The notes beneath the pieces are model-generated. The model saw only the letters and a program-made list of their open reading frames with translations, was not told the origin of the DNA and searched no databases. A DNA stretch of 63,234 bases, filler included, from Folioceros fuciformis (Eukaryota): assembly GCA_049999805.1 (NCBI GenBank). It is 7 parts of 7 records of this genome, joined end to end, with 100 filler letters (N's around TTAATTAATTAA, not from the genome) between each part and the next. Parts side by side here need not be neighbours in the genome. Positions count along the whole stretch, not along the records: positions 55,005 to 61,121 come from JBNGIO010002925.1; 6 more parts are not named here. One strand, written 5' to 3'. Below, piece after piece: positions 8,364 to 62,599 of the stretch. The first letter of the stretch is position 1, and every line of letters begins with the position of its first letter. Made by a program: the position numbers and the translations under genes.

Positions 8364-8463
8364 NNNNNNNNNNNNNNNNNNNNNNNNNNNNNNNNNNNNN
8401 NNNNNNNTTAATTAATTAANNNNNNNNNNNNNNNNNNNNNNNNNNNNNNNNNNNNNNNNNNNN
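8364..8463. other. Assembly gap linker (N-run, TTAATTAATTAA, N-run); also at 23145-23244, 28515-28614, 41876-41975, 54905-55004 and 61102-61221
   Basis: The same six-frame-stop 12-mer flanked by N runs occurs six times. Confidence 0.97.
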
Positions 8464-19949: not shown

Positions 19950-22629
19950 CAAAAGGAATGTTGCTGTGAAGAGCTCAGAAGGGCATGACTGACATACCTG
20001 CCTGGAACAGGTTGATAACGTAGAATCTGGCCTCATGACGGAGGGTGAGTGAGGACCTGACGGACAGGTTCGAAGGGTCAAGTGCACTGGAACGCAGCAG
20101 TCAGCTAGAAGGTAGAGGGTAGCGGTGGAGGAAGGGTCCAAGGAAGAGGAAGAGGAAGAGATGAACGTCCGGAAGTTACGTTTGGTTTCGAAGATTCAGA
20201 AGCTGACTGGGATGGTACCGAGGTTTTCAAGGATGAGGATGGTCAAGAGTCCTCGGCCAGGACATTTTCTAGAGTTCAATCAGCTGGAAAAGAACCACTT
20301 TCACCTGAGCTTGATGGGAAAGAGGGTGAGCGCGGTGGTTAGAACAGAGAGCTTGATGATGATGAAGAAGATGACTCTCCCGAGGGCTTCTCCACGCTGA
20401 AAACAGGAGGCAGAGAAAAGAAGTGGCAGTTCATGGTGAGGAAGAAGCGAGCTGCAGCACAGCTGGCTGATGACCTTGATGGAAACGAGGATGTCCTGGA
20501 GGATGATAGTGGGGCCTACAGGCGGAGGAAAGTGGGCTGGCTGTGTAAAGAAATTCCTGCCACTGAATCCTCGAGAGATAATCTCGATTCTGAATGCACA
20601 CAAGCGGTGGATTCGTGATACTGACACGAAGCAGGTTATTGAGCACCTTCTGCGAATAGAGAACTCTCTTCGACCTTACAGGGTACGTCCTCCTTGATAG
20701 GTTCATGTGCAGCTGGCAAAGCATGGTACGGTTTTCCCATGAACTGTCGGACAAGGCATTGCTGTGTTGTGTATCTTATCGTTTTCTTGGTTTGCAGGTT
20801 CTGAAGTGGATGACTGGGCAGGGCAGCCTTGGTATGAGTTGGACCTTGAGTCGCATACAAAGACGGCAAACATGCTATGCCGGGGTGAAACGCCAAGACG
20901 AGCACGTCACCTGTATGACCAGATAATTGATGCCGAGAAAGTTCCGGACCCGTCAACCTTTGTTGCACTGACAAACAAGGATACCGAGGAAAAATTGGGG
21001 CCTGCCGTGGAAGAAGCGTGGACCATCTTCAATCGGATGAAGCAGCTGGGAGGATACCCTCCCCCTTCGTTGCAGTATGCATTGTTTGATGCTGTTTGAA
21101 CAAGGCCGTAAGAACCCCTGGATTCGGAGAAAGGGCCGATTCGTTGTTCAAGGGGGCAGGGATCAACCGCAGTAAGGAAATGTCTGAGTCACTGATGAAC
21201 TATCATTCCAAACAAAGCAATCTACCCAGGGTTGCTGCTTTGGTTCAGGACATGACTAGTGAGCGAATGGAGCCTGGACAGAATATCTTCTCCACCATGT
21301 TGGAGATCAGAGCTAGGGAGGCACCTCCGGAGAAAGCACAAAATGCGTTGGTGAGCTTGTGGAGGCTGGGTTCAATCAAGGCATATGTTTTAGCTTACAT
21401 CTCATTGATCACAGCATATGGCAGGGCTGATCGAAGGTCGGAAGCCATGGAAAACTTTTCTGCTGTGGAGGCCGCTGCTGTGTCGCCTAATGCACGGGCT
21501 CTGGAAACCCTTATCAAAATACGTATCTTGAGAAGCTAGAGTCCACAGGTGCCTATCCTTCACCATCTACGTACAACTCCATGCTGCAGATGTAGGTTGC
21601 AAGGGAGTTGCCTGAGGAGGGCAACACGTGTAAGACAAGGGCTGTCGCAATGACCAGCAGACTTACTTGATTCTCATTGAGCACTACATAGCTGAGGGTT
21701 CACTCACGCAAGCTGAGGTTATGTATGAGCAGATGCGTAGTGCAGTTCAGCCTAGTCAGAGTGATTACGGCCTTATGCTTGAGGCTTACGGAAAAGTAGG
21801 TGACAGAGACAAGCTCAAGTAGCTGTTTGAGCATCCTTGCTCCAGTCGAATCTTTGTGCCTGAGGAATGCAAGAACCTTTTTATCAAGGCTGTTGGCCGG
21901 AAACGTGTGGAAGAGAAGGCACTGTGAAAGGTGTCCCTGGATTCAACACAACGCATTATACTCTTGGGTGTGCTTTTGGGCGGGACTAAGATGGCAACAC
22001 CGGACAGGGATCGAACCTACTCGTTCCGCTTCGGGCTAGATCCGTTTAGACTCGTAGGCTCACTAGAGATTGATCATCTGTTTGACCTGCTCTCAGATTG
22101 GGTAGTTGGCCCCCCTGATTTGGTGGCACGTGAACCAGACCAAGAAGGCAATGCTAACGCAGGTACAAAGGAGCTCCCAACTATCAGCCATGGCTCCTAT
22201 CGTTTCTTCTATCACCAGTTTACACCCAAGGGCACTCCAAAGATTCCCAGGCTCATTCATAGGTGGCTGAACCCTCAGTGCCTTGCCTATTGGGACATGT
22301 ATGGTGGTCACAGATGTGATGAAACTGGAGGTATCGTCTTCAACGTACCGGGCTATTCCAACAAAGAGGTGATACATAACGTGAAGGCCCTCAAAACACG
22401 TGCCATAGACCGCGAGAGCAAGGAAACTGAGGACAAGCAGAAGCTGCGGTTCAGGGGTCAGTCTGCTGTATGGTTGTGGAAGCTGATGGAACCACACATT
22501 TTGGACACACTGAAGGATGGTCTCAGACCTGACCCCAAGCTCGAAATAGACAGTTTCCAAGACCAGGCCAGGAGAGAACAACCTGAACCTGACTTTAGCG
22601 AGGTTGAAGTCAAAGCCCTAGTCCTGTGA
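19950..22629 (+). pseudogene. OTP51: OTP51-like PPR-LAGLIDADG plastid splicing factor, frameshifted and probably 5'-truncated
   Basis: RKVGWLCKE, ILNAHKRWI, PPR helices (NRMKQLGGYPP, AYISLITAYGRA), C-terminal QRIILLGVLLGG...IPRLIHRWLNPQCLAYW...LWKLMEPHIL. Intron 20683-20797; frame breaks near 20560, 20820, 21097 and 21530-21660. 5' boundary approximate. Confidence 0.88.
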
Positions 22630-23244
22630 CATCTATCTTCAGGGGATGGTAAGGACTGGCAGGTTGTTGCAGACGCTCTCCACAAGGAGCGGATGGCTCG
22701 CAGGAATGCGGCACTGCAGGTAGAAACCAAGAGCAGCCCTGGGTGAGCTTCGTTTTGTTTAACTACAAGTCGAAAAACTACGGACATACTGTATGTAGGT
22801 AGTCAAAGGACCCCTCATAAACGCCTGCCTCTGGACGATAAAGGGCCCATGATAAGGCGGGCGTCCACGTTGCCGGACAGCCAGCCCTCTTTCGATGTAG
22901 GCAAGCGTCGGCAAGCGCAAGCCGAGTGGAGTGGAGAGGAGACGAGAGGAGCGGGGAGGAGAAAAAAGGCTTGTGGGATCGCACCTTAAAGTACCAAATT
23001 TCCTTCCCATTCCGTTACCCCCTTCTCCTCTGCTCTGCCACACCGTTATGCACTTTTCGTACCTTTGCTGCTCCTCCTCCGCGTTTTCCTCCTTTCTCAC
23101 TGGCATGTCAAAACATACATACCTACTATTAATAATAGCTTGTGNNNNNNNNNNNNNNNNNNNNNNNNNNNNNNNNNNNNNNNNNNNNTTAATTAATTAA
23201 NNNNNNNNNNNNNNNNNNNNNNNNNNNNNNNNNNNNNNNNNNNN

Positions 23245-38562: not shown

Positions 38563-41500
38563 CTCCCTCTTAAGCTAATCATAAGCTAAAGAAACAAAGA
38601 AGGGTAGCATGCCAAGGCCAGACGATTAGAGAGTCATCAAAGCTTCATCTGCGTGGCTTGGCAAGGACGTCTTGCTTCTTGTGATAGGGGGATGCCAGAA
38701 TGCTCCCTCTGAAAGCTAAGTCTTCGCTTCAACTTCCGGTCGTGATGAATTGCGGTGAGAAGTCGACCAAACCTAGCTTCTGCATATGCTGATAGTGGTG
38801 CAGCTTAGGTAAGACCTTAGTCAATATATCTGCAGCATTTTCCTCAATAGAGACATAGCTGGCCTTGACCACACCCCGCTCAACAACATCATGGATGTAA
38901 TGACGCTGAATCTCAATGTGTTTCGTCCTAGGGTGAAACTTAGGGTTCGCATCCAAGGCCAAAGCTGACATATTGTTGCAATGCAAGGGTGTAGGGGAAT
39001 CCTGCTTCTAGTCTATGTCTGTAAGAAAGGATCTCTCCCACTCTGCCTTCTTTGCAGTATCTGTGAGTGATTTCTACTCTAGTTCAGTGGAGGAGAGAGC
39101 AATGGAGGGTTACTTCTTGCAACTCCAATTCACGGTTGGTGAGGACAAAAGAAAACAATGGACACTAAGACTTTTCCACGAGTTGGGGTCGAAGGCCCAA
39201 TCTGCGTCAGTATACCACGTGAGTATCAGCTTTCCTGTGCCTTAACTCTTGTCGGCTAGGCCATAGGTGAGGGTCCCCTTAAGGTAGTAGAATATCCTCT
39301 TGACTACTGCCCAGTGAGCCCTTCCAAGTGATTCCACGAATTGAGACGCTGTGGAGACGGAGTATTGGATATCAGGCCTGGTCCATCCACTTACCAACTC
39401 TAAGACTACCAACAGCGTGACGGTAAGGAATGGATTCCATCTCCTTGGCCTCTTCTATTGTTTGTGGGCGCTGGTTTGTTGTGAGCTTTGTGCCGACAGC
39501 ATAGGGGGTGCTAACTGGTTTGACTTGGTCCAACTTAAATCTTGCCAAGATTTCCTTGATATATTTGTACTAGTGAATGATCAAGCTACCCTGAGCTCTA
39601 ATTTGAATTCCTAGGCCAAATTGCAGTTCCCCAATGTCTTTCATGTTAAATTGTGCACTCAACAGCTACTTGACCTCTTCTAGCACCACATAGAGGGTAA
39701 GGAGCATGGAGTGCGGTCCTCGGGAGAGCCTATAAACATTGACATCTGCCGAACTTTGCACAAAGGAGGTACTAATAAGGTAGGAGTGCATGGTAGTATA
39801 CCAGACACAACCGCTCTCCTTGAGACCGTAAATACATTTCTTCAATCTCAGGACCTTATGTAGAAATTTCTTGCTAATGTATCCCTCAGATTGATCTATA
39901 TAGAGCTCTTCATCAAGTGCTCCGTAAAGGAAAGCTGTGCAAACATCCATCTAGTGCAAATCCAAATCCAACTCTGCAGCCAGGGAGAGAAGGATTCAGA
40001 TGGATTGAGCTTGACAACAGGAGAGAACGTCTCCTGGTAGTCGAGCCCTTCGACTTGAGAGAAGCCTCGGGCTACCAGGCAGGCCTTAAAATGCGCAACC
40101 TGGCCCTAGGCGTTCAGCTTAAGCTTGAACGTCCACTTGCAGCTGATCAGCTTCCTACTAGGGGGTGGATCGACCAGCTCCCAAGTCTTGTTTTTTACAA
40201 GACTCTGATACTCATCCTCCATGACTAGCTGCCAATGGAAGGATTTAGGGCCAGAGAGTGCCCAAGTAAGCGTTGTCGGTTCCTCGGGCAAGGGAGATGG
40301 GGAAAAGTGGGCCGTAGAGAGAGAGTTGAAAGAAGTCCTGAAGCCAATGGTCTGGTAAGGGAGCCATTCTGGTCAGCGAACCAGGTCAAGCTGAGCATTC
40401 TCAAGGACCTTTCATGAGGGCTGTCGGACCCGTGTCAACTGTCCGGGTATAGTTGTTAGGGCTGGAGGTGGGGTTGGTGCGGCATCTTGATGTGAAGGAT
40501 CAGCCGAAGGTACATGTAAGACCTCCTATTGTAGCTCCTCGTGTGGCTACTAGTCAAGGTGATCAGGGACAAAGATAGCTGGGTCTTGAAAGTCATTGCT
40601 CCTCTCAGGTTCAGGGGAGCAGGGACAACCAAAGGAGGAGAGATGGGAATCGGGCCGCCGGTGTCACGGGAATAAAGATGCTCGGCCTCGTCCTCATCGT
40701 CAGACTTAAACTCAATAGGATCCACAAGAGCCAAATCACCGTCATCCATAGGGAAGGTTGACAGAGAGTCGAGGTCAGGGTGGATGGAATTTGTGACAAT
40801 AGGTACTCCCTTTGAAGCTGAAGAAGTTGGCTCCATAAAAGTAACACTGTGCGCCAGAGTGATGCTATTGTCATCGGGGCAGAAAAGCTTGTAAGCCTTT
40901 GTGGTTTCGCTATAACCGACAAAAATCAGCTTACGGGCCCTCACTTGTAACGTCCTTCTCTTGGCTTGTGGTATACAGGCAAAACCTTGGGAGCCAAAAA
41001 CTCGAAGGTGTGATATGCTCGGTTTTCTGACCAAGAAAACCTCAAAAGGGGTGCGTCCGGGCAGGGAGCCTGTGAGCACCCTATTAAGAATATAGGTGGC
41101 AGCCGCGATTGCCTCTGCCCAGTAGACTTGAGGTATGCCGAACCACAACAACATACTCTTGGTCATCGAAAGAAGGGTTTGATTCTTGCGCTTGGCTACC
41201 CCGTTCTGCTATGGGGTGTAGGGACGGTAAGCTATCTTTCAATGCCCCTCTCAAGTAGGAAGGTATCAAATTCGTTGTTCACGAACTTTGTCCTATTATC
41301 ACTCCTTAGGATTTCTAGGAGGTTCCCTGTTTACCTTTCTACCTTAGTGAGCCATGCCTTAAAGCATCCAAAGGTCTCACTCTTCTGATGGATAGGGTAC
41401 TAGGCCTAAGAGTACCTATTGGAATCATCTGTAAGGGTTAGATAGTAAATGGCACCACCTAGGGAAGGTGTGTGAATTTTGCCGGAGATGTCAGCATGGA

Positions 41501-41875
41501 CTAACTCTAGCATTGCCTCTACCCTGTGTGCATGTCGAGGAAACGAGAGCTCCTTCTATTTAGCGAGCACGTAGGACTTGCAGGTGGGGAGATGCTCGAA
41601 ACACTTGGGTAAGGGTTCCTGATACAAATCCTGTGAGGGCATAGAAATCAGCTTGTTTTCATTGATATGACCTAACCTAGCATGCCATAGGGAGGCCAGG
41701 TCGTGAAGGGGAAGAGAGGAGGGCTGGTTGGCACTAAAGGTTGAAGGCTCCTTCTCGCCATCAAACACAAGTTTGTACAGTCCATCTGCAGACATGGCCC
41801 TAAACAAGTAGAAATATGGGTTGTGAGAGACAAATTGTTTATATGAACACACACTTCATTCATCGAATAATGTTC
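38563..41875 (-). mobile_element. Ty1/Copia pol (GAG-pre-integrase, integrase, RT, RNase H), degenerate; 3' LTR starts at 38562
   Basis: LWHARLGH, YWAEAIAAATYILNR, NKTWELVDPP, CKWTFKLK, DVCTAFLYG, FHPRTKHIEI, AADILTK; PPT AAGAGGGAG then TGTTAG. Cut by the gap. Confidence 0.93.
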
Positions 41876-42211
41876 NNNNNNNNNNNNNNNNNNNNNNNNN
41901 NNNNNNNNNNNNNNNNNNNTTAATTAATTAANNNNNNNNNNNNNNNNNNNNNNNNNNNNNNNNNNNNNNNNNNNNCCTCCACAGCCTTAGCCCCTCCTTG
42001 CGTGGACGTCTGCTCTCAAGGCCTCGGCCTCAGGCACCTCTACCTCCATCTTTCGCTTCCACCAGCACTAGCCAGAGGGGACCTCGACTCACCTCCCATG
42101 ACCCGTTCTAGGGTTCCTCGTCCATCTGTCACCATATCCTAAGGAACCGGAGCCCGTGTCCTACCTACCACACACCCTCCTAAACCTTATTCACTAACCC
42201 ACTAATCTAAC

Positions 42212-50264: not shown

Positions 50265-53200
50265 ATGACGACCGTGTTCCCGCAAGTCACCGCGCGGCTA
50301 AGCGTGGGCCCTGATTCAGCTCCTTCGGAACATCTACTTGACAGAATCATCAGTTTCCTTGGGCAGGTCGTCCATTTCCCCGCTGGCATTGTGCGTGCAG
50401 AATTTCTCGACTTTCAGAAACCTGGAGAGCATTTCTTAGTCAGGATTGTCGTCTTGCAGTCTGAGTTTCCCCAGGAGCTGCACCACGCAACTTTGCAGGG
50501 AGTTTTCAAGTGCCTTAAAAGCTGGTCAAGGACTCTCTTCTTCAACAAACTGTTGGAATCAGGCATTGCGCGTGTTCTGACCAAAGCATACGACGATCTG
50601 TTGCTGAGGGACTACAGCAGAATCGAAGTGCTAAATTCCGTGTTGGAGCTTCTGTATGCCATTAAAGATTTCAGCGAGGTTGCAGCAGGTTCGGACCCGG
50701 TTGATTCCACGGCGGCATGAATGGACGGCGAGTTGGTATCGTGATGCGAAACCGCACGTTCACGTGAGCTCTTCTTTGCAGGGAAGGAAGAATTTGGCAA
50801 GCACTTTGTACCTCGACTCCTCGCCCTCGCTCCTGCTAAATCAGGCTCTGTGAAGCTGCAGCGGGCTGCCATGGGCACACTGTGTGCCCTGATCACCAAG
50901 TGCTCTCCCAATCAGCAATCTTTCCTGCGTTGCTCCGCTGACTGGTTGGTTTTTTATTCCATCACTGGACGCAGCTGCAATGACTAGGGTGGAGCTCTGG
51001 CTCTGGAGCACTTACAGCATCGAATTCTTTACTCATCTACATGAATGTTCACTGAAGTCGGTTGGCAGTTCCTCACAAATTCCAATCTCTCGAAACTGGA
51101 ACTCGTGCAGTCGCAAGTTGTTCCGAGTTGTCCTTCCCAGATGTGGGGATTTCTGTACACAGGCCACCATCTCGGAGATTTTGCTTAGACTTCTCAGAAG
51201 GGCGCCTCACCTCGTTGATCTCCTCGAAGGTGGAGTTTCTACAGCAGCCATGTCCCAGATGCTTCAGTTGAAGAACCCAAAACTCTCAGCTGAGATAAGA
51301 CACTTCGTCTGCGCGATGAATCAGTCCCTGGGGCCTTTGAGAAGGTACGCATGTTTCCACTTTGAATGCTTTGTACCCTCACATTAATTGTTTCTCCAAC
51401 TCCTGATTTGCTAGATCTTTATAGGGTTTACTCGTTCCTGGCACACAAGATTATGGTGAATGGAAACGATCTGTCTCCAGCGGAGGACAGATGGGTTGAC
51501 TTCGGAGACGACCACTTCAGCTTCTATGCTTTGACTATGACCTCTCAGAGAGATGTATTTCTGATGAATGCTAGACACCCCTTCACTCCCTGCCTTCGCT
51601 GCTGGAATTTTGTCAGAACTAGATTTTGTGACGCAGCATTTCTGTAATCGTGTTCTCAGAACGACAATTCTGCTCAGTTGATTGACGTACAGTATCGCGA
51701 AGTTATCGAAATCAATCGTAAGCCCCCTCTTCCCATAGTTGGTTGGGTTATGTGACATGGACGTTCAGCAATGGTTGTTTGTGCACTAGGCCCTGACAAG
51801 ATTCTTAGCATGCTTTAGTCTAAGATGGCTAGTCGAACTGCAACAAGAAACTCCTGCACTTGCAGGACCCTCTGAAACACATCTGGAAATTGTTGCTGCC
51901 TCAAAGATCAATAACCTTGGATTACAGCAGGTGCAGAATCCTGTGTTGAATGTGATAACCTGCTGCTGGTGTCGTCGTTGCTCCAAATTCCTTCCTGGCA
52001 CGGGTGATGCTCTACTTCATGCTTTTGTGCAGGCGCAAGGGTGTTCAGAGTCGTCGCTGATCACGTTCGACCTTAGTGCTGAAGGTAACGCCGACAGTAC
52101 ATTAATCTAAGAAAGATTTTCGTCGTCAGAAGGAAATTGAACCCCTGTGCACGAACGGTAAGAAAATGCTGATCCCTGGCTGCCCGTTTCATCTGTTGGA
52201 CATTGTTGGTACCAGATATCTTTACAGTTTCAGCTTCCCTCATCCCGTTGATAACACAACATAAGAGGAGACTGCAGCAGGTACGAAGTCGTTTTGCACA
52301 GCCGCATTTCAATACGTTGCTTATGTTGACTGGTTAGGACAACGGTGGGAAGCAGGAAGCCCATCCCAGCCAATTATCACATCTGGCATCTGGCTCTTCT
52401 CAAGCTGGTAGGAAAGCTTCATACGGAATAATAATTCCGTTGCCCAAAATGGTGGCTGTGGAAGAGTTTGAAGAGCCCAGACCACTGAAATCTCGCAGTG
52501 TGGGGTCAAGAATCCTTTCGGTACTCCTGGCATCACGCAGTCATGGAAAAACCGGCGCCAGAGAGGTTCATGCCGAACATTCGAGGGCATCCAAATTCCC
52601 CTGTCCCTCCACTCCTGAAAGAGTAGGCGGGCAACTTGCCCTCAGAACCGTCGAATCTGCAGTGGGCGGAGAGAAGAGTGCAGGCGTTCAATTGTCTAAA
52701 ACATCCATGCAGTTATGCACGGCAAGAAGTGCAGGAAATGAAGGGGGACTCTTACGGGAAGACAGGCCCGAGGTTTCCGGCAGGATAGCATCGGCTGTTC
52801 GTACCGTCGAGCCACCGTGTCCAGCAGCGTCAGCAGGTGTGGAGAGAGCTGAAGGTGCATGTCCAAGCGAACCGGCAAGGATGCAGGAGGATAAGGCTCA
52901 GAGTCCAAGCGACCCGGCAAGGATGCAAGAAAGTAAGGTTCAGAGTTCAGACCACAGTCCCGAGCCAATTGAAACTGGTGACCAGCTTGCAGGCTGGTCG
53001 AAACCCAGAAATTCATCACCAGACCTGGAGCCTGCAAATGCTGCCGCCGATATATCATCCTCCAGTAGTCCAGCTGGACCAGGAACAAGCGAGATTCCTA
53101 GGTGTGGTGCAGCGTCTCCTAGTAAGACCACGAAGACCGAAGCTAATGATGAGGACTCGGAGTACGTACCCACACCTAAGAAGAGTTTGCGGCAGCCTCG

Positions 53201-54867
53201 AGGAGGAGGAGATCCTCCCGGGAGGAAGAAGACTAAATGCAAAGTTACCAGAGTGCATCGAAAACCTGGTTTGATACACGCGGACAAAAGGTGTGCCAGG
53301 TCCCGAAAAGGGAAGTCCGAACGACCAGCAGGAGCTTCCAGTGACGAAGCCGGAAGGATGGGCTCTCATATTTCCAGGAAACGAAGGCGGAGCACGGTGC
53401 AAAACCTTGGAGTAAAACGCACCCACTTCTCAACGATCTCGAGATCTCATGTTGGCGTTGGCCAAGTACAAGAAACGGAACAAGCTGAGGTGTTGGGGAA
53501 TGTTTCAGCGACTATCCCCGCAGCCCTGGACGTGACTGCACAGGTTGCTGCATGCAAAAAGCAAAAAGTGCCAGGCACAGAAGGGGTGGGTCACAATGCA
53601 GCCGCTTTCTTACAACGACAGCCAGAGGATCCTTGTACGGCTACGTCAGCTTTCACGACAGTGGCAGACGGGTCTGCCACTGCGAGGAACTTTGGTCGTC
53701 AGAGGCGACGGGCAGGTTGGCCTGACAAGCTAAACCACGCTCCGAACGATGGTACTTGCCTGACAATGTCTCAGGATGGTCTCCCGCATGATACATACCG
53801 CCATGACGACACTCTTTCGTCAAAACCGAACTCCGTATCCGCTCCAGCGCAAACAGTGAGGGCATTGATCGTGTTTTGCAGTCTAGCAACTTACTAGGAC
53901 TGAGGTTCAATGTAGACGTCGTTTGGCACCTTTACCTACAGGCAGCATGATGGTCCATCTGTTGAAGACCACAAGGATTCCGAGACCCCCGAATCAAGTC
54001 CAGTTGATTATTGTCCCGCTGATTGTCAGGAGGCTAATTTTGCATGTTCAATGGAGTATGGCCAAGTACCACGCCCCGCAGCAGGTATCTTTTGCTTCGT
54101 GAACCTGGCTATTTTGTTAGAGAAACTGCTTTATGGAGTGTTCACGAACTGATTGCTCCCCCGCCTGAATTGACAACCAGATTGTATTCGTATCTTTCCG
54201 AGAATCAGGCGAAGATGGTCCACCAAGACTGCTAAGGAGCAAGAGATACCAGCACCTCATTTGGGTAAAAGGGGCAAACTAAAAGGTGGTTGTACTTAAA
54301 GACCGTTTGCTGAAAACCTGAGGCATCCACCTAGCGTTCGCAGCGGTGCCGTGGCTATGGCTTGCTCACATGAGATTATTCTGATATTAAAGCAGAAAAA
54401 ACGAGCATTGAGGTCGAGTATCAGAGCGACGTCGAGGTGGATCATTCTATTGGGTACGTACAAATCACGTTCTTCTGTAGTTGACTGGTGTCAGGAAGCA
54501 TCTCCATCAGCTGTTGAGATCGAAATGGGTTGCAGGTTGTAAATCAATGTCTCATGGTCTACATACAGGGAAATCGAAAGAGTTGCTAATATGGTAAACA
54601 GACTGAAGCAAAAAAGTAGCCTGCTCACCCAACAGAAAATTGCACATATTCTGTGCCAAGTAACTACAAAAGCGCATCTCCAAATCCAACCTCTGGCAAG
54701 TGCCTTTGAGAAAGACAAGTAGGTGATCCCTCCGATAGCATCAATTGTTTACTTCAAGCGTCGGTGCAGGGTTCCTCAGTTGCGAAGTTCACACACCTAT
54801 GCACGCAGTGAGGAGTTGTTGAAGGAAAGTAAGCGTAGATTTGGGCAATTGGAAGATCAGCTTCGAG
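50265..54867 (+). CDS. ASY3: Meiotic chromosome-axis core protein, ASY3/SYCP2 family (ARM-PH N-terminus, closure motif, disordered middle, coiled coil); 3' end lost in the gap, 5' start uncertain
   Basis: In-phase exon chain: 50265-50688, 50782-50944, 51111-51344, 51425-51554, 51660-51717, 51809-51930, 52033-52084, 52216-52280, 52338-53855, 53946-54084, 54181-54264, 54396-54453, 54569-54718, 54809-54867. Motifs GKEEFGKHFVPRLLAL, GDFCTQATISEILLRL, MNQSLGPLRRVYSF, WVDFGDDHFSFY (SYCP2-like); SSQAGRKASYGI and KIAHILCQVTTKAHLQIQ (ASY3-like). Confidence 0.78.
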
Positions 54868-55004
54868 GTAACCCAACGTCAGAAGCTACGAAGATGTTAA
54901 TTATNNNNNNNNNNNNNNNNNNNNNNNNNNNNNNNNNNNNNNNNNNNNTTAATTAATTAANNNNNNNNNNNNNNNNNNNNNNNNNNNNNNNNNNNNNNNN
55001 NNNN

Positions 55005-58000
55005 TATACAGTGATGGAAAAATAGGCAGCTTGCCACCTCTACCTCTGTGTGAAATCCATGTGTTGTTAAAACATCATCAAGCAGCTTTCAAGAACAAAT
55101 CTCCTCACAAAGCTTCCGATGTTCTTGAGCTTGTCCACACTGATATATGTGGGCCATTGTCTCAGCCTTCAATTGGTGGTGGCAGATATTTCCTCACATT
55201 CACTAATGACAAAACCAGGTTTGTCATGGCCTACATCCTACAGGCCAAGAGTGAGTGTTTCTCTTTGTTCAAAGACTATATGAAATATACAGAGAGATGG
55301 ACTGGCAAACAACTAAAAACCCTCCGATCTGACAATGGTGGAGAATTCACATCTAATGAATTCCAAGCCTATTGTGTTGCTGAGGGAATAGGTAGACAAC
55401 TTACAATTGTTTACACACCACAGCAAAATGGTGTTGCTGAGCGCTTGAATCAGACTTTGCAGGAAATGGTTTCCACTATGTTACATCAGGCCTCTCTGCC
55501 ACTTCCGTATTGGGTTGAGGCCCTTATGACAGCTGTGTACTTGCGTAACAGGCTGCCTACCACTGCCGTTGCAGGGCAAACCCCCTATGAGGCCTTCTTT
55601 GGCAGAAAACCAGCTATCTTGCATCTTTGAACCTTTGGTTGCCTTGCTTATGCTTTTGTTCCTAAAGCCAAGCCCACCAAGTTAGCTGCTAAAGCCAAGA
55701 AATATCTCATGATAGGCTATACTGAAGGTATTAAAGCATATAAATTATATGATGTACCTCACAATCAGGTGGCTTATGCCCGCAGTGTGACTTTTGATGA
55801 AACACATTTCTGGTAGACAGTGGGAGCACTTCCCACCTCCCAAGAGGATTTTGACTTGTCTACTCTTTTGGACATCACAGTTTTTCCTGACCTTCCACAT
55901 GAGGAGATTGCTCCTGCAGGGGGGGAAGATAATCAGCAAAATGCTGGACAGGGTGTAGAGCAGGTAGATGAATTAGCAGTACCTGATCTTGCTGCTGACT
56001 TACAGGATCCACCTCCTCATGTTGTTGTTGATCCTGAACCCCTTGTTCCTAATGACGATGATGGTCCTGATCCAGATCCAGATCTTGACCCTGATGACTG
56101 ACATGCCTAAACCTGTGCGTCGTTATCCTTCAAGAGAAAGACGGGCACCAGACTATTATCAGTCTCAAGATTTCAGGATACCCTCTGTACAAGCTATTGC
56201 TCTTGATCCCGTAGAGCCTCAGTCTTATGAAGAAGCCTTAAGTAGCCCTGATGCTGCAGAATGGAAAAAGGCTATTCAGTCTGAATATGATTCATTGATA
56301 AAAAATAGAACATGGGAATTAGCAAACTTACCCCCTGGACGCAAGCCTGTATCTTGCAAGTGGGTTTTTAAACTGAAGGTTAAAGCAGATGGTACCTTTG
56401 ATCGCTATAAAGCTCGGCTAGTTGCCCGAGGCTTCTCTCAAGTGCCAAGTCTAGACTATTTAGAAACATATGCTCCTATTATGAAGTTGGCTACCTTTCG
56501 CACTATATGTGCACTTGCAGCACACTATGATTATGAGTTAGATATGTTTGATGTAAAGACACCTTTCTTACATGGAAAACTGGACACTGAAATATACATG
56601 CAACAACCACCTGGATATGAGGTGAAAGGAAAAGAAGACTATGTCTTACGCCTGATTAAAACCCTGTATGGGTTGAAACAATCTGCCCTTGAGTGGAATG
56701 CTGTTCTTGATGAAGAATTGTGATCCCTAGGTTTTGTTAAATGTGTCTTATATGGAAGCTTATACATTTATAGATCTAAAGCTGTAGTATGTTACTTGGC
56801 TGTATATGTAGATGATCTCATATTGGCCTGTAACAGCCCTACCTTCATCAAAGACATAAACAAGGTGTTATCAACCAAATTTGAGATGACACACCTAGGT
56901 GCTCTACAAAGTTGCCTTGGTATATTGATTCAGCGTGACAGGCTAAAAAGGACTATTTCTTTAACACAGCCACAATACCTGTTAAATAGTGCTGAACAGC
57001 TTGGTTTGAAGAATGCAAAATCATCAGCTACTCCTTTACCTTGTGGACTGAAAATGAGCAAATCAATGTGTCTTGAAACACAAACACAAAAGGATCAAAT
57101 GAGATCAGTACCCTATAGACAAGCTGTAGGAAAAATTATCTATGCTGCAAATACTACAAGACCAGAAGTAGCCTATGCTACAATTGTGCTTTCACAGTAT
57201 CTGGAAAATCCAGGCCAAACACATTGGACAAGTGTTAAAAGAGTTTTCAGATACCTAAAAGGCACTCATAACATTGGCATAAGGTATAGAAATATACCTG
57301 GAGTGCCCTTACAGCTGGATGTCTTCACAAACTCAGATTATGCTGGGGACATAGATACACGAAAATCAGTTTCCGGCTATGTAGTAATGATAGCAGGAGG
57401 ACCAATCTGCTGGTCCAGTAAAAAACAGCCTACTGTGGCTTTATCAAGTATAGAGGCTGAGTATCGTGTACTTACGGCTACTGCAAAGGAAATTGCTTGG
57501 TGTAAGTTGATGTTTAAGGAACTTGGATTCTCACTTCCCACCTACACCACAATAAAACCAAACAATCAAGGATCAATGAGTCTTGCTCACAATCCAGTAT
57601 TTCACTCCAGAACCAAACATGTGGAAGTCGAAGACCACTTCATACGTGACTTGATCAAATCTAGACAGATTGATCTGGAGTATGTGCCAACAGCTGAAAA
57701 CCCAGCAGACATTTTAACTAAGTCCCTAGGAAGGGAACTTCACGAAAAGCACATGAAAGTCCTTGGCATGGGGAGCCATGAAGGCAGCTCCACTGCCATG
57801 TCTAAGACCTAGCCAACCAAGCTAGTCACAACCCCAGTCATTGCTGTCGTCATTGCCTGAATTTCCTGGTGGAGATTGGAATGATCTCCTGCTCTTAGAG
57901 CTCATTGAATCATCATATTTATTCCAGGAATCACAATCCACAGACTTTGAAGAGAAATTCTCATTCTCATCGCGAGGAGAAAACCTTTTCCTCCTCTCTT

Positions 58001-59571
58001 GATAAGAAAGTCTCTCTTTTGTTTCAAGACTGTTCTCTTCTTCCAATCTATCTTCAGACCTTGTTTGAAGAACAGTGGGAGTATGGTTCACAGGCAATCA
58101 ACACAGGTCAACAGGGGGTTAGGACCATTCCAGGTCAAACACAAAGGCAAAGAAATCAGATTGCCTATACTGACTGTTTTTGAAGTGCAGAAGAATAGAT
58201 GAGAGTTGGTGTGAGAACTCACTATAGACGCTGGTAATGTTGAAAGGATCGATAGAGGAGCATGGTGAGGGAGAGGAGAGAAGAAGAGAGGAGGAGAGGA
58301 GAAAGAGAGGTCTCACAGTGTCTCTCACAGCTCTATTGCAAAGGGAGCTCAAGAGGGTATTTATACCCTCTAGAAAAACTCCCAAGGAAGCTTCACAAGA
58401 AGCTCACTCAAGAAGATCCTTGTGTTCCTGACATAGTTGTAGCTCAATTTGTTTCATCACCAATCCAGTAGTGGTGCACTTGTACCAGAGAGGACTTCCA
58501 AGTGTCTCCCAATTGCCAGGGGTTACGATTCTTGAATCTGACATCACACCTGCAGGAATTGGGAACTTGGGCGGAACAAGAGGGCGCTGGTCAGAATCGG
58601 CATACTCAAACTCACCCTGATTGTAGCGCCGTCTTTCCACTGTAGCCTTTGAATGGACTTCTTCACGGGACCTGTCCCTTAGACCTCCCATGGAAGCAGT
58701 CGGCGCTGTGCGGGAGTGAGGCTGTGGTGCAGCCGCTGTAGATTGACCAATCTTGAAGTCTGAAGTCAAGCGGGTATGATGAGAAGATGCAGCAACTGCC
58801 GTCATTGCAGCTGTCTCTGTTGCAGACTCTCGGCCTCTTGCTCCAACCACAGCTCTGTTGGTGCCTTGAAGTCTCCCTCGCGGCTGCCCTGAGCTGCTTG
58901 CCCTAGTCGTGCCCTTTCTCGCTGTTTGTGCAGGTTGATGCCCTCTCGCGCCCTCCACAAAGGCAATTGCTCTAGCTATCGCTACTACGAAGCGCATGAA
59001 CTGATCCCGTTGGTAGATGCGGTGCTTCGCAGGAGACGTGCTTTCCTCAGACCCTAAAGACGCCATAATCTTTGAGGTGTTGAGCCTGTGCCCTATGAGC
59101 CTAGCCGCTATAAGGCATGGGGCGTAAACAAGAGCTACTAGAACAGCGAACTTGTACAGAGCTGACTTCAAACTGTCCCGCTCCATTGGGAGCCTATGCC
59201 ACACAGGGTACACACACACGCTCAAGCAAGAAGCCCAGCTGAACTCACAGCCTCCACAGGCTACTCGCGAAGGAGAAGATTGACCGACCCATAATAATCA
59301 GCAAGTGGGAGTGATGAGAATAGGTGTTGATTTATTAGGGTTTAGTAATGTTAGCATTTATAGTATGTGTGTACAGGGTTATTATGATTATCATTTTATT
59401 ACCCCTTCATTAAGAGTCATGTCCCTTAGTGTAAGGTTATGTCTCTTCACAACAACTTAAGTTGAGTGAGCCACTTTAATAATAGTGCTCTTATTGTAAT
59501 ATTCTTTTGATCAATAATGTAATTGTTTATTATAGCAATTAGTCTACACCAATCCAATCCAATATTTGTCA
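55005..59571 (+). mobile_element. Ty1/Copia element: integrase, RT, RNase H (to 57812), ~1.5 kb extra region, PPT, putative 3' LTR 59312-59571
   Basis: LELVHTDICGP, LRSDNGGEF, PQQNGVAER, YKARLVARG, YVDDL, KHVEVEDHFIR, ADILTK, with a few stops and frameshifts; AAGTGGGAG followed by TGA...TCA. Confidence 0.92.
58404..59186 (-). CDS. Antisense ORF (260 aa) in the Copia 3' internal region, N-terminal hydrophobic helix, function unknown
   Basis: ATG at 59186; MERDSLKSALYKFAVLVALVYAPCLIAARLIGHR followed by an R/A/S/T-rich region; uninterrupted for 260 codons. Confidence 0.5.
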   Translation of the reverse strand: MERDSLKSALYKFAVLVALVYAPCLIAARLIGHRLNTSKIMASLGSEESTSPAKHRIYQRDQFMRFVVAIARAIAFVEGARGHQPAQTARKGTTRASSSGQPRGRLQGTNRAVVGARGRESATETAAMTAVAASSHHTRLTSDFKIGQSTAAAPQPHSRTAPTASMGGLRDRSREEVHSKATVERRRYNQGEFEYADSDQRPLVPPKFPIPAGVMSDSRIVTPGNWETLGSPLWYKCTTTGLVMKQIELQLCQEHKDLLE

Positions 59572-61101
59572 GTAAGGTGAACTGGGGGAGGGTCTTGTAT
59601 GACAAGATGAACAAGGAGAGGTAGAACTTGGCCTCAGCCTCCCCTCGGCCGTCGATGATCTCTCCCTTCCTCGTGCATACTTATTGTTATGCTAACTTAT
59701 TGCCTGAAGTTGAGGTTATAGCTTCATTGCACATGTGGAAGCCACTGAGGGAAGTGAAGTGGAAGCTCGCAGAGCCGAAGGAGGTTGACTCCAGTAGTTG
59801 CGAGTCAGGAGGCACAGATAGCTCAGAGGAGGAAGCCCCCACCAAGTAGAAGAGGAAGGTGGGGACAGGGAAGCGGACTCCTGCTAAGAGGAGAAGGACT
59901 AGTGGGCAGGTCACCAGAAGGGGAAGCGGGACATTGCAACAGGAAGCCGTACCGAAGCAGGCAGAACAAGACCAGGAAACTGTCCAGGAGCCGACGGAGC
60001 AGGGACAGGCCAAGAAGGAGCCAGAGGCACCTCAAGAGCAGGTGCTAGAAATGGAAATGGCCTGAGGTGATGGGCGAGTTAGGGCACGCTCCAAAATAGG
60101 AACCCTTCCCGGGATGGGAAGAAAGTTTTAGAAGGATTCCTTTAGTGGACAGGTTGTAGGCAGGAGACCTGGAGAGGCTGCGAGCGCTGCTGGGGAGATA
60201 GATCACGGACAGGGGGATGGCTTTGGTGGGGGAGTCGCTGGAGGTGGACTTGCCCGGCTTGACTTCAGCAATGGTGCAAGCCCAGGCGGATATGCTGGAC
60301 CAAGCAGCCAGGGTGCTGACCTGGCTGAGTATGCAGGCGGAGAGGGAGGTTGAGGCCTGGGGCAAGGAGGCGGAAGCTTGTGAGAAGGAGGCCAAAGCCT
60401 GGAGAAAGTTGGCGGAGTCCGAGGCGGAACGGTGGCACATGGAAGAAACACAATGAGTCCTGAGCGCGGCTAAGGCATAGGTGGAGGAAGAGGCCCGCCA
60501 GGCGAGAGAAGAGGTGCAGGCGCTGAAGGAGCAGCAGGAGTCACTCCTAGCTCAGGTGAGGGAAGCCCATGGGACTAACCTGGAGATGCAATAGGAGGTA
60601 GCTAGGACTTAGGAGTAGGAAGCGGCCTTGGTGGAGCAAGCCCAGAAGTTGGCCGACAGGTACAACCAAGAGCGGGATGAGGCCAGAGAGCAGGTGAAGG
60701 GGAAGGGCAAAATCAGGCGAGGTAGTCGAGCAATAACGGAGGTAGCCGAAGAGGCTACCGGTAGAAGAGAGACAACGCCGATAGCGGAAGCCCTGACCCC
60801 GGTAGCTAAAGAGGTGCTTGTGGAAGCGCCTGCAACCCAAAGATCTAGACAAGCGACCCGCGACAGGAGGACTAAGCAGAGAGGAGCAATAGCTGGCAGA
60901 TGGAGGATCCTCTAGTACCCCTGGAAAGCAGAGGGCAAGCAGCTCGAGGTAGCCCACGGGAGGAGGGGGTAAGCGCTTCCTTTGCAATAGAGGGTCGGAT
61001 TGTGCTGTAGTATGAGGAGGAGGCTACTTATGTGCTTGGCCTCTATGTGGAAGGAGCCCAAGTTCTGAAGTTGTTTTTATGTGTGCGTGTGGGCTTAGGA
61101 G
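59572..61101 (+). mobile_element. Degenerate TE-like accessory ORF (basic patch plus E/A/Q-rich coiled coil)
   Basis: KRTPAKRRR, then long coiled-coil-like stretches broken by TAG/TGA; no domain recognised. Confidence 0.4.
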
Positions 61102-61346
61102 GGACGCGGGGCTACGGCCTGNNNNNNNNNNNNNNNNNNNNNNNNNNNNNNNNNNNNNNNNNNNNTTAATTAATTAANNNNNNNNNNNNNNNNNNNNNNN
61201 NNNNNNNNNNNNNNNNNNNNNTATAATGGTCATGGTCATGTACTTCGTATGTCTATCAATTAGGGTTTCAAATTCATTTAGGGCATTCATTTTTTAATTT
61301 ATTTTTTCAAATACTTTGAAGTACTTTTTTTAAACCTTTCATATAA

Positions 61347-61348
<2 letters not shown>

Positions 61349-61385
<37 letters not shown>
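61349..61385. repeat. (TA)n microsatellite
   Basis: About 18 TA units. Confidence 0.95.
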
Positions 61386-61387
<2 letters not shown>

Positions 61388-62599
61388 GGTTTAGGGTATA
61401 TATATAGGGCAACCCTAAACTCATGCACCAGTCCCTCGTGATCGCATGCTACTCGAAGGCAAATAAACGACGTAGAATGCATCGGGCTGAATAACATCCC
61501 CTCAAAACGAGTAGCTAGTCTAGTACTAGTCTTGTGATCTCCCGTGAATAGCCACATAACATACGAGGGCAGTGCCTGACATGGTATTGATATTATCAAG
61601 CATGGATGATAAATTTTTTATTATGATGTCAATTTCATGCAAGCATGACAACCCATACATGTTTGAGGGATGTTAAGCGAAAGAAGAAGACGTAGAAGAT
61701 TGAGAAAACTTGATAAATTTGGGTCCAAATAACTGTAATCGATGGTATGTTCGGGCTATTTTTAGGCAACTAATTTTTGGAAGTAATTTGCATGATTTTG
61801 AAAATTTGAAAAACTCTTAGTACTTATAAATAAATAAATAAAAGTATTTTTAGATTAAAAGAAATAGAGATAAATTGTACATTAAAAAAATTTAAGATAA
61901 AAGATTTCATGGAAGATAAAAAAAGAGTCCTTCCATAAGAGAGAGAAACGAATAGGATTGTATAAGATATTGTTTTAGTTTTAAATTTGCATGGATCCGA
62001 ATATTGAAATGAAGTCCTCAACTGCACGACTTGCTATTACATCATGGCGTTGTAGGTTGACGGCATCGCATCTTGCCTTCCTACCGCAGTGCCCTTCATC
62101 GATGATGTCCATATCATTTAATTTCATTTTCTTTGCATTTATGATTTTACGCATATGCCGATGGTTGCGGCAACCCCGTAAAATGCCAGAAGGCTCTTCT
62201 TTTTTTTGTTTTTTTTGTGGTGCCACACTCTCATTTAGATCAATTTTGTTATAATTATTTTTCTTTTATTTTATCATGTAAGAAAAGAAGCGCGATAACC
62301 CGTTGCAACAAAGTCAAGGTGAGCACTTACTTATGCACTTAACCGCATTGCCACAAACTTGAACTTGCATTATGAGACTCTTAAGAACATGAATATATTA
62401 CAAAATCCAAGAGTGAACTATGAAGTGCAAACATGTCAATCACATGTATGTGCATCCGCAATCACACAACACGACATCACACAACACAATATAAAATATG
62501 CAATGTACAAGCTGCACTACGTACTTATGCACCTAACATGGTATACCACAATGTGCCACACAAGGTAGCATAAAATTAATGAACAAAATTGTGTCTTAT

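Follow-up and report, generated by a model that had tools for sequence, protein, structure and literature searches.

An antisense open reading frame between pol and the 3′ LTR of a Ty1/Copia element of Folioceros fuciformis: a candidate accessory gene

The extra genes that long terminal repeat (LTR) retrotransposons carry are, in plants, the nearest equivalent of retroviral accessory genes. Antisense open reading frames (ORFs) between pol and the 3′ LTR are described, in the sections of PMC7264820 drawn on here, for Grande, RIRE2, Retand, PvRetro13 and the fungal element Boty; their products have no database relatives, gene23 of Grande has its own upstream promoter, and an antisense promoter of human T-cell leukaemia virus (HTLV) is cited. 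PvRetro13 and its 14 sister families are Ty3-gypsy elements (Table 2 of PMC4093653), and the same article's account of two bean Copia families with an extra ORF describes that ORF as sense and env-like. The portion of PMC11963269 used here reports antisense TRP28 ORFs in Retand elements, confined to flowering plants. In these accounts, antisense extra ORFs are treated as a hallmark of flowering-plant Gypsy elements of the Tat/Retand type, and Copia elements are credited with sense env-like ORFs alone. Here we analyse an ORF of the other orientation in a Ty1/Copia element of Folioceros fuciformis. It lies in a stretch of 63,234 nucleotides (the window) from assembly GCA_049999805.1, on the part that comes from JBNGIO010002925.1.

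A first annotation of this stretch (the original prediction) had read the ORF, by inference, as an accessory membrane-protein gene driven by antisense promoter activity of the 3′ LTR. It had also held that the env-like ORFs of Sireviruses are sense-oriented and that antisense extra ORFs are best known from Gypsy elements, which agrees with PMC7264820, PMC4093653 and PMC11963269 as far as their consulted sections go. In the literature searched, which excluded subscription journals and supplements, we found no Copia element with an antisense extra ORF. A term search of the REXdb survey (PMC6317226) for extra or antisense ORFs gave no match to the terms used.

An antisense frame with coding-like statistics

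The features of the element on which the analysis depends are the following.

55005–57812, + strand: 3′ part of a Ty1/Copia pol with integrase core, reverse transcriptase (RT) and RNase H, delimited by Pfam matches, reading frames and the contig edge
57813–59299, no strand: spacer of 1,487 nt between the pol stop and the polypurine tract (PPT), mosaic-like in summed contig depth
58404–59186, − strand: antisense extra ORF of 260 codons, ATG to TGA, start context CCCAATGGAG
59088–59165, − strand: hydrophobic transmembrane-like or signal-anchor segment FAVLVALVYAPCLIAARLI, codons 8–33, seen in hydropathy and as an AlphaFold2 helix
58119–58403, − strand: open stretch in the same frame, downstream of the ORF stop, spanning a GA-rich repeat
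57822–58097, − strand: second open stretch in the same frame
59300–59311, + strand: PPT AGCAAGTGGGAG, directly before the TG at 59312
59312–59613, + strand: AT-rich start of the 3′ LTR (TGATGAG...), with an end placed near 59613 (...AACA) that could lie further out
59356–59362, − strand: TATAAAT, a candidate element of an antisense promoter, within the LTR and 176 nt upstream of the ORF start
57918–57923, − strand: AATAAA, a candidate poly(A) signal some 480 nt downstream of where the ORF stops

The unbroken antisense ORF of 260 codons, predicted to start about 125 nt from the LTR boundary, is present at 58404–59186, with its ATG 125 nt from the LTR edge at 59312. Its frame is open from stop to stop over 58404–59297 (297 codons). 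With the pol stop (57812) on one side and the PPT (59300) on the other, it has the position and orientation of the ORFs termed aORF-3R. No internal stop occurs in this frame, compared with 10–16 in each of the other five frames of the same stretch. When 57813–59311 was shuffled, an open frame of at least 297 codons appeared in 0 of 2000 mononucleotide shuffles and in 1 of 2000 block shuffles. On the + strand of 58404–59297 the longest frame has 62 codons, so that there is no sense gene opposite the ORF. This counts because the window does contain spurious long ORFs opposite ABC-transporter and P450 genes: a frame of 263 codons at 3174–3962 (− strand) and one of 390 codons at 35872–37041 (+ strand), respectively. 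These shadow ORFs show that long antisense frames arise opposite GC-rich genes in this genome.

Codon usage was scored with a model trained on eight known coding segments of the window and applied leave-one-out. The ORF reached a log-likelihood of +0.052 bit per codon, within the range of the eight known segments (−0.075 to +0.155), whereas the other five frames scored between −0.24 and −0.34. None of 2000 random stop-free ORFs of equal base composition reached the score of the ORF (mean −0.107, standard deviation 0.045). The start codon has an A at −3 and a G at +4. From the depletion of stops, the codon usage and the N-terminal hydrophobic helix we conclude that the frame 58404–59186 is, or recently was, a real protein-coding sequence, as judged from these sequence statistics.

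Two further ORFs had been placed in the same frame. The frame is indeed shared, but they are not convincingly coding. The stretch 58119–58403 has a codon score of −0.179 and is probably non-coding, while that at 57822–58097 scores +0.054 in frame against −0.042 in another frame and is ambiguous. In 57822–58400 the frame of the ORF contains three stops, compared with 6–8 in the frames of the + strand and 7 and 21 in the others of the minus strand, which is only a mild depletion. One ancestral ORF of 490 codons over the whole spacer was considered and rejected on this mild depletion, the codon score of −0.18 and the high-depth GA-rich simple repeat. A palindromic element, GGGTATTTATACCC, is found at 58349–58374; its minus strand reads TATAAATA, toward pol.

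The predicted product is basic (36 K+R and 23 D+E) and consists of 12% A, 10% R, 9% S and 8% T, with few N, D, I and K. Its Kyte-Doolittle hydropathy over 19 residues has a maximum of 2.3 at residue 13 (residues 13–31). This value was reached by 19 of 5000 random stop-free ORFs anywhere in the sequence, by 3 of 5000 within the first 20 residues, and by 3 of 5000 shuffles of the protein's own residues. AlphaFold2, run without an alignment, gave a mean predicted local distance difference test (pLDDT) score of 50.6, with helices at 3–44 (pLDDT 76–81), 52–81 and 232–254 and the rest disordered. The hydrophobic N-terminal helix of the original prediction is therefore seen both in hydropathy, where it is rare by chance, and in the model; as a predicted transmembrane segment, the property shared with the env-like ORFs of Sireviruses, it comes from hydropathy alone. 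The model suggests a tripartite protein, in which an N-terminal helix of the membrane-anchor or signal-anchor type is followed by a second helix and then by a long stretch that is basic and disordered and closes with a short C-terminal helix. Since more positive charge follows the hydrophobic helix than precedes it, the basic tail would lie in the cytosol.

No relatives of this protein were found. Pfam gave no family for the ORF at E up to 0.1, and none for the 492-residue read-through (X at stops) at E up to 1. Of the three open stretches searched at E up to 0.1, only the third gave a Pfam row, for COX16, and this match is at chance level (E 0.044; 14.5 bits, with the cut-off at 27); neither TRP28 (PF04195) nor an SMC-like or other shared domain was detected by Pfam in the ORF product. 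No homologue was returned by a word search of 5.8 billion proteins (lengths 163–520 residues), by phmmer against 1.84 billion representative proteins, by the ESM Atlas, by the PDB (best E 0.69), or by JGI metagenome contigs and IMG/VR viral contigs. By these sequence comparisons the protein is an orphan. A match to an ordinary host gene had been named as an outcome that would overturn the prediction; none appeared in Pfam, the PDB, the ESM Atlas, the 1.84 billion proteins or the metagenome and viral contigs, and with every homology search empty an ordinary conserved host gene is unlikely.

The Copia element and its copies

Upstream of the spacer, Pfam placed rve in 54953–55627 and RVT_2 in 55977–57100 (E 1e-41); behind these the RNase H region extends to 57812, the pol stop being at 57810–57812. 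The order integrase, RT, RNase H, together with an RVT_2-type RT, is that of Ty1/Copia elements (Pseudoviridae). As had been predicted, pol contains stops: there are in-frame stops at 55628–55630 and 56721–56723, and the frames of integrase and RT differ, which gives at least one frameshift. The original prediction had set the unbroken ORF against this broken pol. With about three lesions in 2.8 kb of pol, however, chance would spare a 0.78-kb ORF in roughly one case out of three, and its intactness beside a broken pol carries no weight as evidence of selection.

The RT-RNase H part has a best identity of 44–46% among the 5.8 billion proteins and is about equally far from Copia proteins of plants, fungi, oomycetes and sponges. 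Amino-acid identity to the pol of the other Copia of the window is 38–54%. That element is a second, unrelated fragment:

38563–41591, − strand: second Copia fragment (pol 38768–41591), 5′ part lost at the contig end

Its pol stop lies near 38729 and its junction, AAGAGGGAG followed by TGTTAG, at 38563, about 165 nt apart. The predicted difference in spacer length between the two elements (about 1.5 kb and about 170 bp) is thus borne out by the measured 1,487 nt and about 165 nt.

In metagenomes we found 31 related loci, with 25–51% identity over the best-matching segment. Among them, 24 were examined; the other seven are partial matches or are cut by a contig end. A terminal direct repeat follows pol in 10 of the 24, and in these the spacer between pol and LTR measures 11–796 nt. 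Since these relatives are compact and their spacers contain no antisense ORF of at least 120 residues, the long ORF-bearing spacer is a derived feature.

The stretch was found in only two DNA runs of one sample, X1 and X2, with word shares of 0.53 and 0.50, no RNA run being among those listed for 57600–59500, and the contigs of four runs (X1–X4) were aligned to 55005–61121 at a likeness of at least 80%. Among the 30 pieces listed, at least five come from the ORF region (58404–59326), with 80–89% identity:

58415–58884: X1 record 4, 73 differences, net 3 gap letters
58639–58833: X3 record 18, 34 differences, 0 gaps
58790–59032: X3 record 19, 26 differences, 0 gaps
59109–59326: X3 record 20, 43 differences, reaching only 15 nt into the LTR
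59123–59293: X3 record 21, 31 differences, 2 gaps

Three of the matches listed lie wholly inside the ORF, with 0, 0 and net 3 gap letters. Furthermore, one X1 contig skips 58674–58856 (183 letters) and has 24 other letters instead, a net difference of 159 nt that is in frame; among the matches listed, all length differences within the ORF are multiples of three. Pieces of pol are 80–87% identical, again among the matches listed, and this divergence, near that of the ORF-region pieces, fits co-amplification. The ORF region is multi-copy and old. A one-off insertion absent from sibling copies, which had been named as a possible refutation, is not what these contigs show.

The summed contig word depth in X1 changes along the spacer, from 111 (57861–58064) to 895, then 20,646 (58269–58472), 46–69 (58473–59084) and 155 (59085–59288). 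Run X4 may be an RNA run; among its eight pieces listed, none falls in 58404–59186, which says nothing on expression. An apparent boundary at 58407 was rejected: it consists of nine loose ends with a median length of 10 letters that resemble a shifted local repeat. In run X3 there is an excess of C>T (452) and G>A (296) over A>G and T>C (87–115), as a bisulfite-type library would give. If X3 is of that type, the methylation of the element could be read from it.

At the right-hand end of the spacer, AGCAAGTGGGAG at 59300 is followed by TGATGAG up to 59318, a PPT with a TG-initiated 3′ LTR, and the junction type GGGAG/TG is common to this element and the second Copia of the window. Independent support for the boundary at 59312 comes from a single X4 contig of 768 nt, whose alignment (59312–59481, 5 differences, 4 gaps) begins at exactly this base. 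At the far end, the AT-rich part runs to about 59613, and 59616 is where sibling contigs from runs X1 and X2 start. The flank beyond it (59614–61121, + strand) is purine-rich, with degenerate Glu/Ala/Lys-rich coiled-coil-like frames (for instance 60217–60456) that have no Pfam match, and is repeated in the genome at about 85% identity. It is either the body of a long LTR or another repeat into which the Copia element inserted.

Within the spacer, three further features bear on its origin:

58074–58082, + strand: repeat of the PPT core AGTGGGAGT, which apart from the PPT itself is found nowhere else in the 63-kb window
58767–58785, + strand: degenerate PPT plus LTR-start junction CAAGCGGGTATGATGAGAA, 16 of 19 bases, inside the antisense ORF
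58270–58310: GA-rich simple (tandem) repeat adjoining the ORF, in the X1 bin 58269–58472 of depth 20,646

Over both strands of the whole window, AGTGGGAGT matches twice, with 0.73 expected. Its two copies form a 9-nt direct repeat (58074–58082 and 59304–59312) that brackets the ORF-bearing segment. The junction-like motif at 58767–58785 includes an exact TGATGAGAA, the first 9 nt of the LTR; matches of this type are expected 0.04 times per window, and two or more were seen in 0 of 100 shuffles. Both motifs are improbable as chance matches. Around either of them no extended similarity was found, and comparisons of spacer segments with the LTR and its flank gave only short, chance-level matches. 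The PPT-like motifs may have been left behind when aberrant priming or template switching assembled the spacer, and read in this way they fit a secondary acquisition of the module.

Two other arrangements were tried and rejected. A nested Mutator-like element or retrocopy flanked by the AGTGGGAGT repeat would have terminal inverted repeats or a poly(A)/poly(T) tract, and none was found. A minus-strand LTR element with the ORF as its gag would need a TGG-type primer binding site after the LTR end on that strand, where there is none, and given the place of the TATA motif only about 50 nt would remain for R-U5.

Concerning the limits of the sequence, the window is a string of seven unplaced contigs in which adjacency across the joins is meaningless. 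The six joining blocks of 100 bp (8364–8463, 23145–23244, 28515–28614, 41876–41975, 54905–55004 and 61122–61221) each consist of 44 N, TTAATTAATTAA and 44 N, and the insert TTAATTAATTAA has stops in all six frames. An apparent "104-nt repeat" in the window was rejected, being just the N blocks of these joins. The piece with the element (55005–61121, 6,117 bp) cuts at its left edge into the Copia integrase. In the window, repeat, exact and 3-mismatch, blastn and tblastn searches found neither a second LTR copy nor a sibling of 52000–61500; with concatenated contigs and an element that begins inside integrase, the window holds no 5′ LTR or sibling copy. Rfam gave no match on 55005–61121 at E up to 0.1.

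Origin of the module and other parts of the window

We tentatively favour the reading, which we place a little short of even likelihood, that the ORF is an element-borne accessory gene, forming an antisense module between the pol stop and the PPT of a Ty1/Copia element. An antisense transcript would start near the inner edge of the 3′ LTR, at the TATAAAT at 59356–59362 (no TATA[AT]A[AT] was found on the + strand in 59312–59700), and would end near the AATAAA at 57918–57923, so that the spacer and the first 50 nt of the LTR would form a compact antisense unit. In analogy to the antisense ORFs of Gypsy Retand/Tat elements and to antisense genes of retroviruses, its role would lie in modulating the replication of the element itself, through the protein, the antisense RNA or the two together. 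Given the compact relatives and the relic PPT-like motifs of the spacer, a secondary acquisition of the module by one subfamily is probable; neither terminal inverted repeats nor a poly(A) tail mark the ORF segment as a nested transposon or retrocopy. Of the accessory membrane-protein gene that had been predicted, the coding signal, the helix, the position between pol and LTR and the lack of a host-gene match have held, whereas the two extra same-frame ORFs and the argument from an intact ORF beside a broken pol have not.

Several observations weigh against this accessory-gene reading. Among the matches listed, no contig bridges the pol-spacer or the ORF-LTR junction with at least 31 letters on both sides, and the analysis covers a single copy of the element, whose pol is dead. 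In X1 the depth over the ORF core (46–69) is several-fold below that of pol (180–590) and of the LTR start (254); the module may therefore be present in a minority of copies, although depth is not equal to copy number. None of the spacers of the 10 metagenome relatives with terminal repeats contains an antisense ORF of at least 120 residues, and the 9-nt repeat could be read as the target-site duplication of a nested insertion. The candidate promoter is one motif in AT-rich DNA. As for the coding evidence, the codon training set is small (about 2,900 codons) and includes the pol of this very element, the residue make-up of the product is close to a plain translation of GC-rich DNA, and 159 of its 260 residues have a pLDDT below 50.

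Some of these points would suit a different history, unlikely in our view yet the one to be taken most seriously among the rivals, in which the ORF is a captured or nested passenger: a real but foreign coding sequence (an orphan host gene or a fragment of a repeat) that was taken up by aberrant reverse transcription or recombination in one Copia copy or small subfamily, plays no role in the element and is now decaying. The low depth of the ORF core, the mosaic spacer with a segment of very high depth and GA-rich sequence beside the ORF, the compact relatives and the possible target-site duplication (58074–58082 and 59304–59312) are in line with such a capture. The two PPT-like motifs at 58074–58082 and 58767–58785 fit repeated aberrant priming or template switches, and transduced ORFs are present in one or few copies according to the part of PMC7264820 that treats them. 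Against this, no host-gene homologue was found in any database searched, nor were terminal inverted repeats or a poly(A) tail. Moreover, the sibling pieces are as diverged (80–89%) as those of pol, which argues for several old copies instead of one recent event, and the differences among pieces inside the ORF are in frame. If the ORF is a passenger in few copies only, the locus is a case of ordinary sequence capture.

It is improbable that the ORF is an independent neighbour, that is, a lineage-specific host gene or repeat abutting a truncated Copia, or the product of a chimeric contig, in which case pol, ORF and LTR would not form one transposing unit. The piece is an unplaced contig of 6.1 kb, only 0.53 and 0.50 of the sampled words were found in X1 and X2, the depth shifts along the spacer, and no listed match crosses the junctions. 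Yet the spacer directly adjoins the pol stop, a canonical Copia PPT/TG closes the ORF-bearing segment, and the GGGAG/TG junction type recurs in the other Copia; a chance juxtaposition would hardly keep both landmarks. Less probable still is a fortuitous ORF in a non-coding 3′ spacer, with any function in the antisense RNA alone. An orphan, largely disordered product with GC-driven composition would be in keeping with it, as would the spurious antisense ORFs of the window at 3174–3962 (ABC) and 35872–37041 (P450). Those frames lie opposite genes, whereas the + strand here has no frame longer than 62 codons, and in each of the three tests, on shuffled sequence, codon usage and the hydrophobic helix, chance is rejected at a level of about 1 in 1000 or better.

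On the other parts of the window, a GT4 glycosyltransferase has its best match (62%) to a Logan protein and is 51–59% identical to proteins of mosses, lycophytes, ferns, gymnosperms and angiosperms, and the ESM Atlas places a P450 among clusters of Streptophyta. These host genes point to a streptophyte at some distance from every well-sampled lineage. The unrelated contig that precedes the element carries at 52338–53894 (+ strand) a frame of 519 codons (482 residues when counted from its ATG) in which Ser, Arg, Pro and Ala are abundant and 42 nt are duplicated in tandem (52861–52944); it has no Pfam match and no similarity to the antisense ORF. At 21928–22626 (+ strand) there is an intact ORF for a LAGLIDADG_2 homing endonuclease (E 8.5e-27), which suggests that organelle-derived DNA is present among the unplaced contigs.

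Relation to described systems

The locus resembles gene transduction of the type of maize Bs1 in that foreign sequence lies inside an LTR element, where it typically occurs in one or few copies (PMC7264820, in the portion used). Transduced pieces normally match a host gene, whereas here there is no homologue in the searched collections and several diverged copies exist.

With the env-like ORFs of Sireviruses (SIRE1 type, for example pvRetro3 and pvRetro4) it has in common that a Copia element carries its extra ORF between pol and the 3′ LTR, with a predicted transmembrane segment. The env-like ORF of SIRE1 is longer than those of bean. In the bean elements, as far as the source excerpts give them, the env-like ORFs are sense and encode 381–393 residues, in 10-kb elements with 1.7-kb LTRs, whereas the ORF described here is antisense and shows no similarity to them; because of its orientation it does not belong with the Sirevirus env-like ORFs.

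Like the HBZ gene of HTLV-1, the ORF is a minus-strand gene candidate near the 3′ end of the element, with an antisense promoter in the 3′ LTR, here in the form of a candidate motif. ASP of human immunodeficiency virus type 1 (HIV-1) is a small hydrophobic membrane-associated protein that also comes from a retroviral antisense gene. To HBZ and ASP there is no sequence relation, and the present host is a plant and the element a Copia without env.

Were the accessory-gene reading true, the two superfamilies would have evolved the antisense layout independently of each other, such genes would have a wider taxonomic range that takes in an early-diverging green-plant lineage, and a small, tractable orphan protein of 260 residues would be at hand for probing their function. 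It is plausible that this is the first antisense extra ORF in a Copia element. A broader proposal is possible, though we think it rather doubtful: a Ty1/Copia lineage of a non-seed streptophyte with its own conserved antisense accessory gene, transcribed from the inner edge of the 3′ LTR, whose membrane-anchored, basic and disordered product acts in replication or copy-number control, would be the first Copia counterpart of the Retand/Tat ORFs and convergent with HBZ and ASP. On this proposal the gene may even have originated de novo in spacer DNA.

The closest likeness in layout is to the aORF-3R of Tat/Retand elements (gene23 of maize Grande, rice RIRE2, Silene Retand and ORF2 of Phaseolus pvRetro13). 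These are described in the consulted sections of PMC7264820 and PMC11963269 as antisense ORFs between pol and the 3′ LTR, in a long spacer with tandem or simple repeats, encoding proteins without clear database relatives. The Tat/Retand elements are Gypsy, however, and the present one is Copia, with integrase before an RT of the RVT_2 type. According to the same partial record, their spacers measure 2.9–6.6 kb, compared with 1.5 kb here, and 97% of Retand clusters encode TRP28 (PF04195), some of the proteins being nuclear or DNA-binding, whereas our ORF has no Pfam domain and a membrane-anchor-like helix. Because the element is Copia and the ORF lacks TRP28, it does not belong to the Retand/Tat group. 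By analogy of position and orientation, it may nevertheless work as an aORF-3R does.

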